A stretch of 64,000 bases of DNA, taken from Saprospira grandis DSM 2844. Its GTDB lineage: Bacteria > Bacteroidota > Bacteroidia > Chitinophagales > Saprospiraceae. The DNA lies in assembly GCA_945888475.1 (NCBI GenBank), contig CAMDAB010000004.1, positions 4,678-68,677 on the forward strand. Direction: 5' to 3'. The notes beneath the pieces were generated by a model, which was not told the origin of the DNA, did not search any database, and worked only from the letters and a program-made list of their open reading frames with translations. Positions 35,548-38,099 of the stretch are shown here, one piece after another (position 1 is the first letter of the stretch; every line of letters begins with the position of its first letter). Made by a program: the position numbers and the translations under genes.

Positions 35548-35772
35548 AAAGTCATTTTCTTAATAGGGAAACGGGTGAAATTCCCGCACTGTCGCGCAAC
35601 CGTAATTGGCCATTTGCCATAAGTCGGATACCTGCCAACCAAAATTGGGGTTTGAGAAAGCTTTCGCGTCAAAGGCTTGCTCTGCATAGTTTGCTTACAG
35701 CCCCAAAGGCAGCATAATCCGGATATGCACGCTGTTTAAGGAGGTAACATTATTCTGTGTCGGCAGGTTTTG
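35548..35772 (+). ncRNA. Cobalamin (B12) riboswitch
   Basis: Core AATAGGGAAACGGGTGAAATTCCCGCACTGTCGCGCAACCGTAA matches the B12 element consensus (AGGGAA..GGTGAAA.TCC..GC.G.CCCGCAAC.GTAA). A downstream GCCATAAG...GGATACCTGCC resembles the B12 box. Lies in the 5' leader of the gene at 35811. Confidence 0.65.
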
Positions 35773-35810
35773 ACAGCTCGAGTAATGTTATTTTTTAATC
35801 CAAAAACAGC

Positions 35811-37085
35811 ATGATCATGGCTATCAAAACTATTTTTCCAGTTTTATTCTTTTTATTTTTTAGCAGTTTTCTCTATGCCCAACAACTTATTGTGGCGAAT
35901 GGAGGCATTTTTGGTTCAAGTACCGAATTCGCTAATATTGGCATTTATAACAGTACCGATGGCAGTTTTCGTAAGTTGGATACGGTTCGTACCAATTCCG
36001 TTCAGGATGTCCTTGTTGAGGAAAACCGATTTATTTATTTGGCTGCTCAGGACAGTATTGTCAAATATGACCTCTGGACTGGCGAAAGAATCGCTGCCGG
36101 ACAATTCGGGGCACCCAGCACCATTCGCCTAGGCATTTATGGCGAAAAACTCATAGTCGGCAATTGGTATGCAGCCAGCGAGGGAAATCTGCGCATTTTC
36201 GATAAAAACAGCCTTGCCTTTATCGACAGTATTCCCGAAATCACAAAGGGTGCAACAGATTTTGTGATTATAGCTAACAAAGCCTACATTGCCCAAAATC
36301 ACACAACTGTAAACTACAGCGACACACTTGGTTATATGGCTATTGTCGACCTTGATAACCTGAGTTTTTTGCGCAATGACACGCTTTCTAGCGTTGGCGA
36401 TGAAATTGGCAGGCTGGTGAATGTGGGAGACTCGGTTCTTTATACCATCAATGGTGTCAGTTCAACAATTTCGACCTTGCACTTGCTTAGCGGAGTAAAA
36501 AACACAGTCGCTGCTGCAGCTGTACTCTATCCAAAAAGCACCGGAAAATCAGTTTTTTTCGATGGCACAAAATGGTATCTTCCATTTAATAATGGCATTG
36601 GGACTTACGATCTTGTGAACAATGCGGTTATCAATGCCGATATTGTTATCCCACCAACCTTTTCTTATGGCTATGCTGTTGATCCGATTCAGGACAAAAT
36701 TTATGTCAGCTCAATTGATTTTGGCAATCAACTGCTAAATAATAAAGGATTGATTTACAACCTTAACGGCGATAGCACTGGCATTTTTCCGGTAGGCTTT
36801 TCTACCGAAGTGCTCGAAGTATTAAATAGCACTGTCAATTTAAATAATTCTGTGCTTGAAGATCTTAGCCAAACAACTATATTCCCAAATCCGATAGTAA
36901 ATGAGTTGAACATGCAACATTCGGAAAAAATAGGCAGATTGGAAATTATTGGACTGGATAGCAAAGTCTTAAAAAGATTCGAAGGCATCGAAAATAATGT
37001 TTTCAAGGTTGATCTTTCGAGTTTATCTTCCGGAGTTTATTTTGTCAGAATTGGCACTGAAATTCAAAAGTTCATAAAAATTTAG
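35811..37085 (+). CDS. Secreted protein with a T9SS (Por) C-terminal sorting domain and a possible beta-propeller-like body
   Basis: Signal peptide. C-terminal ...IFPNPIVNELNM...GVYFVRIGTEIQKFIKI is a T9SS C-terminal-domain signature. Confidence 0.6.
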   Translation: MIMAIKTIFPVLFFLFFSSFLYAQQLIVANGGIFGSSTEFANIGIYNSTDGSFRKLDTVRTNSVQDVLVEENRFIYLAAQDSIVKYDLWTGERIAAGQFGAPSTIRLGIYGEKLIVGNWYAASEGNLRIFDKNSLAFIDSIPEITKGATDFVIIANKAYIAQNHTTVNYSDTLGYMAIVDLDNLSFLRNDTLSSVGDEIGRLVNVGDSVLYTINGVSSTISTLHLLSGVKNTVAAAAVLYPKSTGKSVFFDGTKWYLPFNNGIGTYDLVNNAVINADIVIPPTFSYGYAVDPIQDKIYVSSIDFGNQLLNNKGLIYNLNGDSTGIFPVGFSTEVLEVLNSTVNLNNSVLEDLSQTTIFPNPIVNELNMQHSEKIGRLEIIGLDSKVLKRFEGIENNVFKVDLSSLSSGVYFVRIGTEIQKFIKI

Positions 37086-37145
37086 TTGATGCGCAGCTGC
37101 TCCCTGATGGTATTAGAATCGGGGGGCGGCATTTTTACATTTACC

Positions 37146-38099
37146 ATGAGAACAATCTTTATATTAATTTTCATTTTCCCCATTGCGCTAATTTTACATG
37201 CACAATTCCCTCCGGCAGCGGGATTGCCTGGAAGCACAGCTATTCATATGGACTCAGTTCAGTGGGTGACCTGGGCAAATAATTGTATAGTCCAAAGAGG
37301 TTTCCTGAATATTGCCAATCAATCGATTGGCACTGTAAACTCGGGTACAGAGCAGGATGCATGCGGAATGGCCAGCGAGGGAGGACTACTGAGTCTGGGC
37401 GATGGAGGAATTGCTATTTTACAATTTCCTGTTCCAATTTCAAATGGACTAGGGCCCGATTTTGCCATTTTCGAAAATTCATTTAACCATACTTTTCTTG
37501 AACTTGCCTTTGTGGAAGTGAGCAGCGATGGCCAAAACTTTGTGAGATTTCCTGCTATTTCCAACAATGATACAAGTGTTCAGATTGGCCCTTTTGGCGC
37601 ATCGGATGCAAGTAAAATTCATAATCTGGCCGGTAAATACAGAGCAGGATACGGAACTCCTTTCGATCTTGAAGAGCTTAAAGATTCAACAAATATCGAC
37701 ATCGAAAACATTACGCATGTAAGATTAATAGATGTTGTCGGCAGTATTTTACCAGATTATTGCAGCCGCGACAGTCGTGGTATAATCATCAACGACCCAT
37801 GGACTACGCCATTCAATGAGGGCGGATTTGATTTGGATGCAGTGGGTGTTATACATAGCGCACAATCCTCGGCAACTAGCCAAATCGAAAACAACATCGC
37901 AGTTTTTCCAAATCCATTTGCAGCAGTTTTGACAATTGAAAGCGAAGCTGCTGAAAATTATGCAATTTATAACATGAATGGTCAATTGATTCAATCTGGA
38001 ATAGTCAGTTCAAAAACAACTTTGGATTCCTCCAATTGGCAAATAGGTATTTATGTCTTGAGAATAGCTGAAAAAAGTATTAAGATTGTAAAAAAATAA
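37146..38099 (+). CDS. Secreted protein with a T9SS C-terminal sorting domain, unknown N-terminal domain
   Basis: Signal peptide from the Met at 37146. C-terminal ...AVFPNPFAAVLTIE...GIYVLRIAEKSIKIVKK. The stop of the upstream gene lies 60 nt before this start. Confidence 0.55.
   Translation: MRTIFILIFIFPIALILHAQFPPAAGLPGSTAIHMDSVQWVTWANNCIVQRGFLNIANQSIGTVNSGTEQDACGMASEGGLLSLGDGGIAILQFPVPISNGLGPDFAIFENSFNHTFLELAFVEVSSDGQNFVRFPAISNNDTSVQIGPFGASDASKIHNLAGKYRAGYGTPFDLEELKDSTNIDIENITHVRLIDVVGSILPDYCSRDSRGIIINDPWTTPFNEGGFDLDAVGVIHSAQSSATSQIENNIAVFPNPFAAVLTIESEAAENYAIYNMNGQLIQSGIVSSKTTLDSSNWQIGIYVLRIAEKSIKIVKK

Follow-up and report, generated by a model that had tools for sequence, protein, structure and literature searches.

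A two-gene unit led by a cobalamin riboswitch was found to encode two proteins with type IX secretion system (T9SS) C-terminal sorting domains (CTDs). We estimate a probability of about two in three that this unit is a corrinoid-repressed satellite operon of a B12-uptake system, with two products that would be exported by T9SS and serve as extracellular or surface accessory proteins for B12 capture. No btuB, btuG, TonB-dependent transporter, or DUF5074 gene was detected in the window (the whole stretch of DNA analyzed, 64 kb), and the unit is flanked by unrelated genes of the opposite strand; the locus is a satellite, without btuB nearby. To judge from the homologues, the DNA comes from a Saprospiraceae-like member of the Bacteroidota. 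Neither product matched a family of TonB-dependent receptors, ABC transporters, or cobalamin biosynthesis enzymes, as had been stated in the initial annotation. Positions of all features, and the names G1 and G2 used for the two proteins, are given in Table 1.

Table 1. Features of the two-gene unit and its leader (nucleotide positions are those of the window)
Feature	Position	Strand	Length, composition, or basis
Putative Bacteroidota-type promoter	35464..35493	+	-33 TTTG 35464-35467; -7 TAccTTTG 35486-35493
Cobalamin riboswitch aptamer, short variant without P6 extension	35511..35640	+	RF00174
Expression platform	35641..35810	+	sequence reading and RNA fold
Terminator-like hairpin and terminal U-run	35739..35796	+	15 nt before gene 1 ATG; RNA fold
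Gene 1 (G1)	35811..37085	+	424 aa
G1 signal peptide	aa 1-23	+	read by eye
G1 BtuG-like beta-propeller	aa 24-343, nt 35880-36839	+	AF2 model, Foldseek, hhalign
G1 T9SS type-A CTD	aa 357-424, nt 36879-37082	+	PF18962 / TIGR04183
Gene 2 (G2)	37146..38099	+	317 aa
G2 signal peptide	aa 1-19	+	read by eye
G2 BtuH-like jelly-roll domain	aa 20-245, nt 37203-37880	+	
G2 T9SS type-A CTD	aa 253-317, nt 37902-38096	+	PF18962 / TIGR04183

Both proteins carry signals for Sec and T9SS export

The CTDs of both proteins, assessed with the models Por_Secre_tail (PF18962) and TIGR04183, scored above the curated cut-offs. Por_Secre_tail matched the extreme C terminus of G1 with 34.1 bits and that of G2 with 44.4 bits (cut-off, 27), and with TIGR04183 the scores were 30.3 and 47.6 bits, respectively (cut-off, 23). 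The T9SS CTD structures 8GLK and 8GLJ were also matched in PDB profile searches. Read by eye, the translations begin with cleavable Sec signal peptides that have a hydrophobic core and A-x-A-like sites (FLYA/QQ in G1 and ILHA/QF in G2, the slash marking the cleavage site), and a lipobox cysteine was absent from both. The mechanical open reading frame of gene 2 starts at TTG 37086; we placed the start at ATG 37146 because this yields a normal signal peptide and agrees with homologues of 317 amino acids. By sequence criteria both products are T9SS type-A cargo, in keeping with the initial annotation, and their actual secretion is predicted.

G1 is a divergent homologue of BtuG

The AF2 model of G1 (pLDDT, 87.8) was compared with the PDB by Foldseek, and ranks 1 to 10 were all BtuG2, BtuG3, or 3DSM, with a best E value of 3.5e-13 and TM scores (target) of 0.72 to 0.74. 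In hhalign, G1 matched BtuG/DUF5074 over 259 columns with a probability of 98.8% (E, 6e-17 to 7e-17), whereas negative controls remained below 1%. The G1 profile also matched lipobox-bearing DUF5074 proteins of related loci (E, 1e-11 to 3e-5), and the Pfam DUF5074 model gave no match to G1 at an E value of ≤1. The likeness to BtuG (DUF5074; BT1954; PDB 8BMX, 8BMY, and 3DSM; PMC6143338, PMC10404256) comprises the seven-bladed propeller, the cobalamin riboswitch, and three pocket aromatics, W194, Y316, and Y335 of BtuG2 being aligned to W119, Y286, and F304 of G1. In contrast to BtuG, G1 has a T9SS CTD instead of a lipid anchor, has no lipobox, is only about 14% identical to the solved structures, and is not encoded beside btuB within the window. 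The loops of BtuG2 that carry Y239 and W272 are not kept in G1, most invariants of the BtuG family (E55, N62, N84, N107-S109, R133, E180, and D331) are missing or replaced, and about one blade segment is absent compared with BtuG. Given the loss of the invariant residues and of the blade segment, the G1 pocket may not bind B12 in the manner of BtuG.

Sequence and model together identify G1 as a real but divergent BtuG homologue. In related operons the G1-type gene precedes btuB and a separate, canonical btuG; given this co-occurrence with a canonical BtuG lipoprotein, G1 is an extra component and not the lid of BtuB.

G2 belongs to a large family and has the fold of BtuH

G2 is a member of a very large family that is absent from Pfam and counts no fewer than 2792 clusters when grouped at 50% identity. 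Its fold is that of the C-terminal B12-binding domain of BtuH2, to which its sequence is weakly similar, and its nearest relatives of known structure are the domains of BtuH2 and BtuG1 that bind B12. For sequence comparison, BtuG2 residues 47 to 364 were rebuilt from PDB alignments and used as the query for the Bacteroides thetaiotaomicron operon, which provided BtuH2, BtuL, and BtuJ2. Among 2311 open reading frames, BtuH2 was the best match of the G2 profile outside the family (12.9 bits; E, 0.0055), compared with 6.3 bits for the next. In hhalign, with a single sequence as template, the probability of the match between G2 and BtuH2 was 48% (E, 1.9e-4), and its score of 35.0 exceeded those of 150 of 150 shuffles (14.2 ± 2.8; maximum, 30.1). 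Chain 8BLW_B was the top PDB match, weakly, for both the full-length profile A2 (E, 0.01) and the sub-region profile A6 (E, 0.08). No BtuH or BtuG1 chain was recovered in PDB searches with the N-domain profiles A3 (15 sequences) and A5 (43 sequences), the matches of the complete G2 model in Foldseek were confined to two-domain beta-glucuronidases at TM scores of about 0.2 and were uninformative, and a 44-amino-acid fragment of the BtuG1 H domain had no match in a protein search. We consider the sequence similarity between G2 and BtuH borderline significant. The suggestion in the initial annotation that the two proteins could be functional analogues of BtuG and BtuH exported by T9SS was largely right. 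Compared with BtuH (BT1956, BtuH2, PDB 7BIZ; H domain of BtuG1, PDB 8BLW; PMC8941943), the domain of G2 is shorter (about 225 versus about 270 amino acids), and G2 lacks PKD/Ig domains and a lipid anchor (no PKD match, no lipobox).

The residues of BtuH2 that contact B12 are Q333, N399, F401, H476, Y510, W511, W577, and L578 (PMC8941943). N399 and F401 align, inside the confident core of the alignment, with N111 and F113 of G2, which are invariant in the family. H476 aligns with H191 of G2 in a low-confidence extension, and its equivalent is probably kept; Q333, also in a low-confidence extension, corresponds to a Gln in the family consensus that is Leu in G2. Equivalents of Y510, W511, W577, and L578 were not identified, and only 2 to 3 of the 8 named contact residues are confidently kept. 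Across the G2 family, with members that are approximately 50 to 97% identical, the N-x-F motif and the His are invariant or nearly so.

The G2 domain also occurs in fusion proteins. P0353 consists of a BtuG-like domain, a G2 domain, and a CTD, is collinear with residues 50 to 471 of 8BLW_B, and mirrors the G-plus-H architecture of BtuG1; in other fusions, a DUF4465 or a DUF4430 domain precedes the G2 domain and the CTD. We rejected G2 as a relative of DUF4465 (hhalign probability, 0.2 to 0.3%, as also for G1; no Pfam match), of BtuL (no similarity found), and of G1 (hhalign comparison).

It is conceivable that both proteins, although members of the B12-uptake regulon and T9SS cargo, have no affinity for corrinoids and serve instead as adaptors, for docking, as scaffolds, or as organizers of vesicles or the surface. 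BtuK2 and BtuL of B. thetaiotaomicron, which are encoded in riboswitch-controlled B12 operons and do not bind cobalamin (PMC12751083, PMC13616437), provide a precedent, and both the loss of most BtuG-invariant polar residues from G1 and the small number of BtuH2 contacts confidently present in G2 fit such a role. We nevertheless judge it unlikely, since the near-invariant N-x-F and His of G2 match ligand-contacting positions of BtuH2, since G2 does not resemble BtuL, and since the G2 domain is repeatedly fused with DUF4465 and BtuG, domain types proven to bind B12.

G2-family loci are associated with B12 uptake

Whether orthologues are also linked to riboswitches, a question raised in the initial annotation, was answered by the 80 G2-family loci, 52 of which carry a cobalamin riboswitch in front of the gene and in its orientation, compared with 0 of 80 downstream and 1 of 80 on the opposite strand. 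When rechecked with Rfam, 18 of 20 nhmmer-positive or blind loci were confirmed, as were 0 of 9 nhmmer-negative loci. A riboswitch and/or a neighboring gene for BtuB, BtuG, or T9SS-tagged DUF4465 or DUF4430 was present in 67 of the 80 loci, and no B12 context was found in the other 13. TonB-dependent transporters occurred in 38 of 80 loci, BtuG/DUF5074 in 41, genes for DUF4465 plus a CTD in 16 to 18, probably 16 or 17, genes for DUF4430 plus a CTD in 13, and a BtuF-type binding protein in some. Nearly half of the riboswitch-positive loci (24 of 52) were riboswitch-only satellites without a transporter.

A function unrelated to corrinoids, for example, the binding of glycans through a CBM32-like jelly roll and a propeller, might serve only under B12 scarcity, such as in attack on or adhesion to B12-producing neighbors. 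This we regard as improbable: the G2 domain is encoded inside btuB-btuG(-btuF) operons in most family loci, the homology of G1 is specifically to BtuG, and for G2 the top matches, in sequence as in fold, point jointly to BtuH and not to CBM32.

The leader contains a cobalamin riboswitch

A B12 element in the 5' leader of the unit had been proposed in the initial annotation, and the leader indeed matched RF00174 with 44.2 bits (curated gathering score, 31.5), with E values of 7.6e-8 when the whole 64 kb was scanned and 6e-10 when the scan was limited to positions 35400 to 35900. The B12-box core reported there (35565 to 35605) lies within this match, but the aptamer begins 37 nt upstream of 35548, where the annotated locus had been taken to start. 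In the aptamer, 8 nt replace the 62 model positions of the P6 extension region, so that it does not have the full class-I architecture, and the loop of an early hairpin contains a 24-nt insertion. The short variant is shared with a related locus, L001, where a near-identical leader scored 41.8 bits against RF00174; the leaders are conserved almost base for base, and the proteins are approximately 79% identical. RF00174 scores of typical relatives were 82 to 110 bits (full range, 75 to 110), compared with 44 bits in the window.

The aptamer ends 170 nt upstream of the gene 1 ATG on the same strand, with the terminator-like hairpin in between. The free energy of this hairpin was -20.1 kcal/mol, compared with -8.6 ± 2.2 kcal/mol for shuffled sequences (z = -5.1; 0 of 200 shuffles were as stable). 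Two segments of the expression platform, GGCAG (35708 to 35712) and GGCAGGT (35762 to 35768), are each complementary to the 3' strand of the aptamer, ACCTGCC (35630 to 35636), and in the minimum-free-energy fold positions 35625 to 35636 were paired with 35708 to 35721, from which we infer a switch by alternative pairing. The Bacteroides promoter consensus is TTTG / TAnnTTTG, and the elements upstream of the aptamer constitute a putative promoter of this type, which a sigma-70 scan does not cover.

The riboswitch is genuine, and its binding of corrinoids and repression of the unit are predicted. That the match represents a chance or decayed element and that the genes are constitutive is very improbable, since, despite a score far below those of typical relatives and the missing P6 extension, the match exceeds the curated cut-off at an E value that is low for a 64-kb scan, the leader is kept in L001 more strictly than the proteins, a strong terminator-like hairpin follows, and riboswitches accompany the orthologous genes in most genomes.

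Comparison with known B12-capture systems

The closest parallel in layout is operon 1 of B. thetaiotaomicron, btuK1-btuK2-btuH1, which is under a promoter and a B12 riboswitch of its own (PMC12751083, PMC13616437). Like the unit described here, it is riboswitch controlled, encodes accessory proteins only, with a beta-propeller followed by a BtuH-type protein, and is separate from the btuB promoter; it has been proposed to act upstream of BtuB-BtuG. The proteins of operon 1 are lipoproteins with PKD domains encoded beside btuB1, whereas those of the window have Sec signals and T9SS CTDs, have no PKD domain, and are encoded without btuB within 64 kb. The propeller of G1 also appears to be BtuG-like and not BtuK-like. 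The structure 4R5O, to which BtuK propellers are compared, is absent from its top 50 Foldseek matches.

T9SS tags on DUF4465 B12 binders are already known: the sorting domain IPR026444 was noted in 2025 on 229 of 824 members of the DUF4465/BtuJ family (PMC12751083). These are extracellular B12-capture modules with CTD targeting, as is proposed for G1 and G2, but neither window protein is a member of that family (no PF14717 match). A literature search found no link of T9SS to B12 uptake or corrinoids besides that note, the titles of other matches being off-topic.

Proposed mechanism and implications

Under the favored reading, that of a corrinoid-repressed satellite operon, corrinoid at high intracellular levels would be bound by the leader aptamer, and the hairpin and U-run would halt transcription ahead of gene 1, whereas under corrinoid scarcity the polymerase would read through. 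Both products would cross the inner membrane via Sec, and recognition of their type-A CTDs by T9SS would leave them attached to the surface or released. Outside the cell, G1, as a BtuG-type seven-bladed propeller, and G2, as a BtuH-type jelly roll, would bind corrinoids and deliver them to a BtuB-BtuG transporter whose genes lie in another part of the genome. In this scheme we infer that the proteins bind the ligand, where they finally reside, that they hand it over to BtuB, and how attenuation works. By analogy with hemophores, G1, G2, and the CTD-tagged DUF4465 and DUF4430 proteins might together form a released, soluble protein "cobalophore" system of environmental Bacteroidota that diffuses away, captures B12, and returns it to BtuB-BtuG; within it, the G2 domain would be the B12-binding module found most widely, and one that has not yet been studied; we offer this as a tentative idea that may well prove wrong.

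How Bacteroidota capture B12 outside the cell is known almost exclusively from the lipoproteins of gut Bacteroides (BtuG, BtuH, BtuJ, and BtuK). Together with its 80 relatives, the window locus suggests that a parallel design, with capture domains of the same kinds exported by T9SS, exists in Bacteroidota of lakes, seas, soil, rumen, and sediment, and that many environmental Bacteroidota export B12-capture proteins by T9SS. Because riboswitch satellites without a transporter are common, the annotation of riboswitch regulons could be improved by considering them. The G2 domain is very common and has neither a Pfam family nor a studied member. If it binds corrinoids, it would represent a new B12-binding family with which thousands of entries named "T9SS type A sorting domain-containing protein" could be annotated, small proteins of about 225 and 320 amino acids would be at hand for biochemical tests, and T9SS would be tied to competition for vitamins.

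A cobalamin riboswitch precedes a pair of T9SS cargo genes

The initial annotation placed a cobalamin riboswitch ahead of two proteins with signal peptides and Por/T9SS sorting domains, and both the riboswitch and the cargo pair are real. In an Rfam scan of the whole window on both strands, the leader matched RF00174 with 44.2 bits (E 7.6e-8; gathering score, 31.5), and a sensitive rescan of 35400-35900 returned the same single match; an SRP RNA was the sole further Rfam match in the window. Gene 1 and gene 2 form a self-contained two-gene unit, since the neighbours are unrelated and all lie on the opposite strand: a ClpB-like gene on the upstream side, and genes of the TraB/GumN and AhpC types on the downstream side. 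In both proteins the C-terminal T9SS type-A sorting domain (CTD) scored above the curated Pfam and NCBIfam thresholds, and an N-terminal Sec signal peptide with no lipobox cysteine was read by eye. No family in Pfam or NCBIfam matched the mature domain of either protein, and close homologues were found in Saprospiraceae and Aureispira. Elsewhere in the window lies an 827-aa ORF with Pfam matches to MVP_shoulder (E 6.8e-30) and to Vault_3 (E 9e-8), a homologue in bacteria of the major vault protein of eukaryotes.

Features of the two-gene unit, its leader and other genes of the window
Feature	Position	Strand	Description
ClpB-like AAA_2 protein	32054-35371	-	1105 aa; ~500-aa N-terminal extension
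Putative Bacteroidota-type promoter	TTTG 35464-35467; TAccTTTG 35486-35493		just 5' of aptamer; read from sequence
RF00174 match (aptamer)	35511-35640	+	
Aptamer 3' strand ACCTGCC	35630-35636		
GGCAG(GT), two copies	35708 and 35762		complementary to ACCTGCC
Shine-Dalgarno-like AAGGAGG	35738-35744		67 nt 5' of start codon
Long hairpin ending in U-run	35739-35796		between aptamer and start codon; RNA fold
Gene 1	35811-37085	+	424 aa
Gene 2	37146-38099 (most likely)	+	317 aa; mechanical ORF start, TTG 37086
DEAD-helicase protein	42094-45150	-	1018 aa; C-terminal REase_MTES_1575 nuclease domain
MVP-like ORF	56680-59163	+	827 aa

The aptamer is a short variant, with 8 nt in place of 62 model positions in the region of the P6 extension and a 24-nt insertion in the loop of an early hairpin. 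Typical relatives scored 82 to 110 bits across the full RF00174 model (full range, 75 to 110), and riboswitches ahead of the same gene family elsewhere were mostly full length. The short form of this lineage, without the P6 extension, scored 42 to 44 bits and was also found in the Saprospiraceae MAG locus L001 (at 528-664), where the leader was almost identical to that of the window and the gene 2 protein only 79% identical. Its ligand selectivity may differ from that of the relatives.

The promoter is putative, read by comparison with the Bacteroidota consensus. With a folding energy of -20.1 kcal/mol, the hairpin was more stable than every one of 200 shuffles (z = -5.1). Alternative pairing of GGCAG(GT) with the 3' strand of the aptamer would be of the type used by attenuation switches. 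Shine-Dalgarno sites are mostly absent from the host phylum; in the minimum-free-energy fold, G-U pairs join AAGGAGG to the U-run of the terminator.

Gene 1 encodes a divergent BtuG homologue

Structure and profile comparisons related gene 1 to BtuG. The AlphaFold model of its product (G1*, a BtuG-like propeller protein with a CTD; pLDDT 87.8) placed the CTD sandwich after a beta-propeller. Its ten best Foldseek matches in the PDB were all BtuG (BtuG2, 8BMX/8BMZ/8BAI; BtuG3, 8OKV; 3DSM), with E of 3.5e-13 to 9e-12, target TM of 0.72-0.74 and ~14% identity, and outranked generic propellers. The G1 family profile weakly matched the last blade of PDB BtuG chains (E ~2e-4), and an HMM of the propeller region matched lipobox-bearing proteins of ~350 aa in related loci (E 1e-11 to 3e-5); the latter belong to Pfam DUF5074, and their HMM matched B. 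thetaiotaomicron BtuG2 at 1e-98. In profile-profile comparison, the G1 family aligned with these BtuG proteins over ~260 columns with a probability of 98.8% (E 6e-17), compared to <1% for unrelated control pairs.

For residue mapping, BtuG2 residues 47-364 were rebuilt from printed PDB alignments, with the numbering checked against residues named in PMC10404256. BtuG2 W194, Y316 and Y335 aligned with G1* W119, Y286 and F304, positions that are mostly aromatic throughout the G1 family, and the mobile-loop residues Y239 and W272 had no G1* counterpart in the alignment. Most of the polar residues invariant in BtuG (E55, N62, N84, N107-S109, R133, E180 and D331) were replaced in G1* or fell within a deleted segment. 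G1* is therefore a BtuG homologue whose ligand face has been remodelled, and the sequence is no guide to its B12 binding.

Gene 2 carries a putative BtuH-like domain

Clustered at 50% identity, the family of the N-terminal domain of the gene 2 product (G2; G2* with its CTD) spans 2792 clusters at E <= 0.001 and 1105 at E <= 1e-30, and the CTD was present in 81 of 81 examined copies. Residues 423-473 or 429-472 of BtuG1 (8BLW_B) were the only non-CTD match of note of a full-length G2 profile in the PDB (E 0.01) and the top match of a sub-region profile (E 0.08), but two further profiles missed it. The B. thetaiotaomicron operon was taken from gut metagenome contigs, with BtuH2 verified by all eight published residue numbers. 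When 2311 ORFs were scored with the G2 HMM, BtuH2 ranked first outside the family, at 12.9 bits (E 0.0055; next, 6.3 bits), and none of 150 shuffles reached its hhalign score against G2 (35.0, E 1.9e-4; shuffle maximum, 30.1; mean, 14.2; sd, 2.8). In the confident core, G2 'SLGD-GG..F..PI.NG.G.DFAVFENSF' aligned with BtuH2 'SLGSFGG..F..SIPNSGNQYDFCVQGNAF', and the family-invariant N111 and F113 fell on BtuH2 N399 and F401, which contact the nucleotide-loop phosphate and the lower ligand, respectively (PMC8941943). A low-confidence extension was collinear through the whole domain and placed H191 opposite H476, the family 'AGQ' opposite Q333 (a position held by Leu in the window protein), and WA, DS..G and GG..D opposite the corresponding BtuH2 motifs. 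No similarity of G2 to DUF4465, BtuL, BtuG or G1 was found. Weak as it is, this sequence evidence agrees in indicating a BtuH-like domain, one whose family is very large and unstudied.

Fusion proteins lead in the same direction. Upstream of a CTD, G2 was preceded by a BtuG-like propeller (P0353), by DUF4465 (P0248 and P0249), by DUF4430 (P0237) or by another G2 (P0236), and P0297 (1134 aa) reads PKD, G2, PKD, BtuG-like, CTD. G2 holds the place of the BtuG1 H domain, since P0353 aligned with 8BLW_B in one stretch running from the propeller into that domain (query 28-447; chain 50-471). P0333 (2151 aa), P0304 (1320 aa) and P0297 are very large T9SS proteins of many domains, in which G2 is located close to the C-terminal end and is accompanied by PKD, fn3 and InlB B-repeat domains.

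Riboswitch linkage and gene order in the G2 family

In a sample of 80 G2 loci (one genome per species), 7 of 8 blindly picked loci had a cobalamin riboswitch according to Rfam, as did 11 of 12 that were positive with an nhmmer profile built from Rfam-confirmed elements and 0 of 9 chosen as nhmmer-negative. With nhmmer, an upstream riboswitch on the same strand was found in 52 of 80 loci; none lay downstream, and one lay on the opposite strand ahead of another CTD gene. Eight riboswitch-negative loci had <1.5 kb of upstream sequence. At L030, a second cobalamin riboswitch (16023-16162, minus strand) lies on the opposite strand ahead of a DUF4465 + CTD gene (13022-13984, minus strand).

Recurrent orders were riboswitch, G1*, G2*, TonB-dependent transporter, BtuG lipoprotein; riboswitch, transporter, DUF4465 + CTD, G2*, BtuG; riboswitch, DUF4430 + CTD, G2*, BtuG, BtuF-type binding protein; riboswitch with only G2*; and, as in the window, riboswitch with only G1* and G2*. 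A transporter was present in 38 of 80 loci, BtuG in 41 and at least one B12-related feature in 67; 24 riboswitch-positive loci had no transporter within 6 kb. The riboswitch was directly upstream in 14 of 17 G1*-bearing loci (16 related loci and the window). At L022, L051, L061, L065, L074 and L057 (G2 at ~8001), a TonB-dependent transporter and BtuG come after G2, which in some cases is accompanied by G1*; Rfam found no cobalamin riboswitch within 8 kb, the upstream genes encode FtsY-like, radical-SAM/TRAM and MORN-repeat proteins, and regulation there must differ. DUF4430 + CTD directly behind a cobalamin riboswitch and ahead of G2 (L007, 7225-7986; L011, 6376-8001; L009, 6805-7998) is likely another T9SS-exported B12-related module. 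L076, titled Oscillospiraceae bacterium (Firmicutes bin), shares the L056 order of riboswitch, BtuG-like lipoprotein and 497-498-aa G2 protein with T9SS CTD, and is probably a mis-binned Bacteroidota contig. In MAGs labelled Chlorobiota (L012 and L020), the operon is complete, with riboswitch, G1*, G2* and transporter, and T9SS CTDs are present, so either the module is not confined to Bacteroidota proper or these bins have been wrongly assigned.

Comparison with known B12 uptake systems

Around BtuB, B. thetaiotaomicron encodes the lipoproteins BtuG, BtuH, BtuJ (DUF4465), BtuK and BtuL in operons under riboswitch control, and a riboswitch and a promoter of their own serve the genes of the btuK1-btuK2-btuH1 cluster (PMC12751083, PMC13616437). 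Among known systems, the window locus most resembles this cluster, in which a propeller protein precedes a BtuH protein. Unlike its products, the window proteins use a T9SS CTD rather than lipidation for export and anchoring and have no PKD domains; the window propeller is of the BtuG rather than the BtuK type, and the locus sits away from any btuB. We take IPR026444 to be the T9SS sorting domain. It is found on 229 of 824 DUF4465 proteins (PMC12751083), so T9SS targeting of some B12 binders has already been touched on for one family; this was the sole link found in a literature search for T9SS with B12 uptake or corrinoids, judged partly by titles. For BtuG-like proteins, BtuH-like proteins and the G2 family, the same search turned up no description of such targeting.

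Homology, context and fusions strongly support membership of the gene pair in a B12-uptake regulon. Because BtuK2 and BtuL of B. thetaiotaomicron are non-binding relatives, the main rival to corrinoid binding is an accessory role without binding for one of the proteins or for both. That either protein binds corrinoids is a prediction made on good grounds, to which we assign a probability of about 0.65 to 0.7, and the candidate binders are two small soluble domains, open to direct testing.
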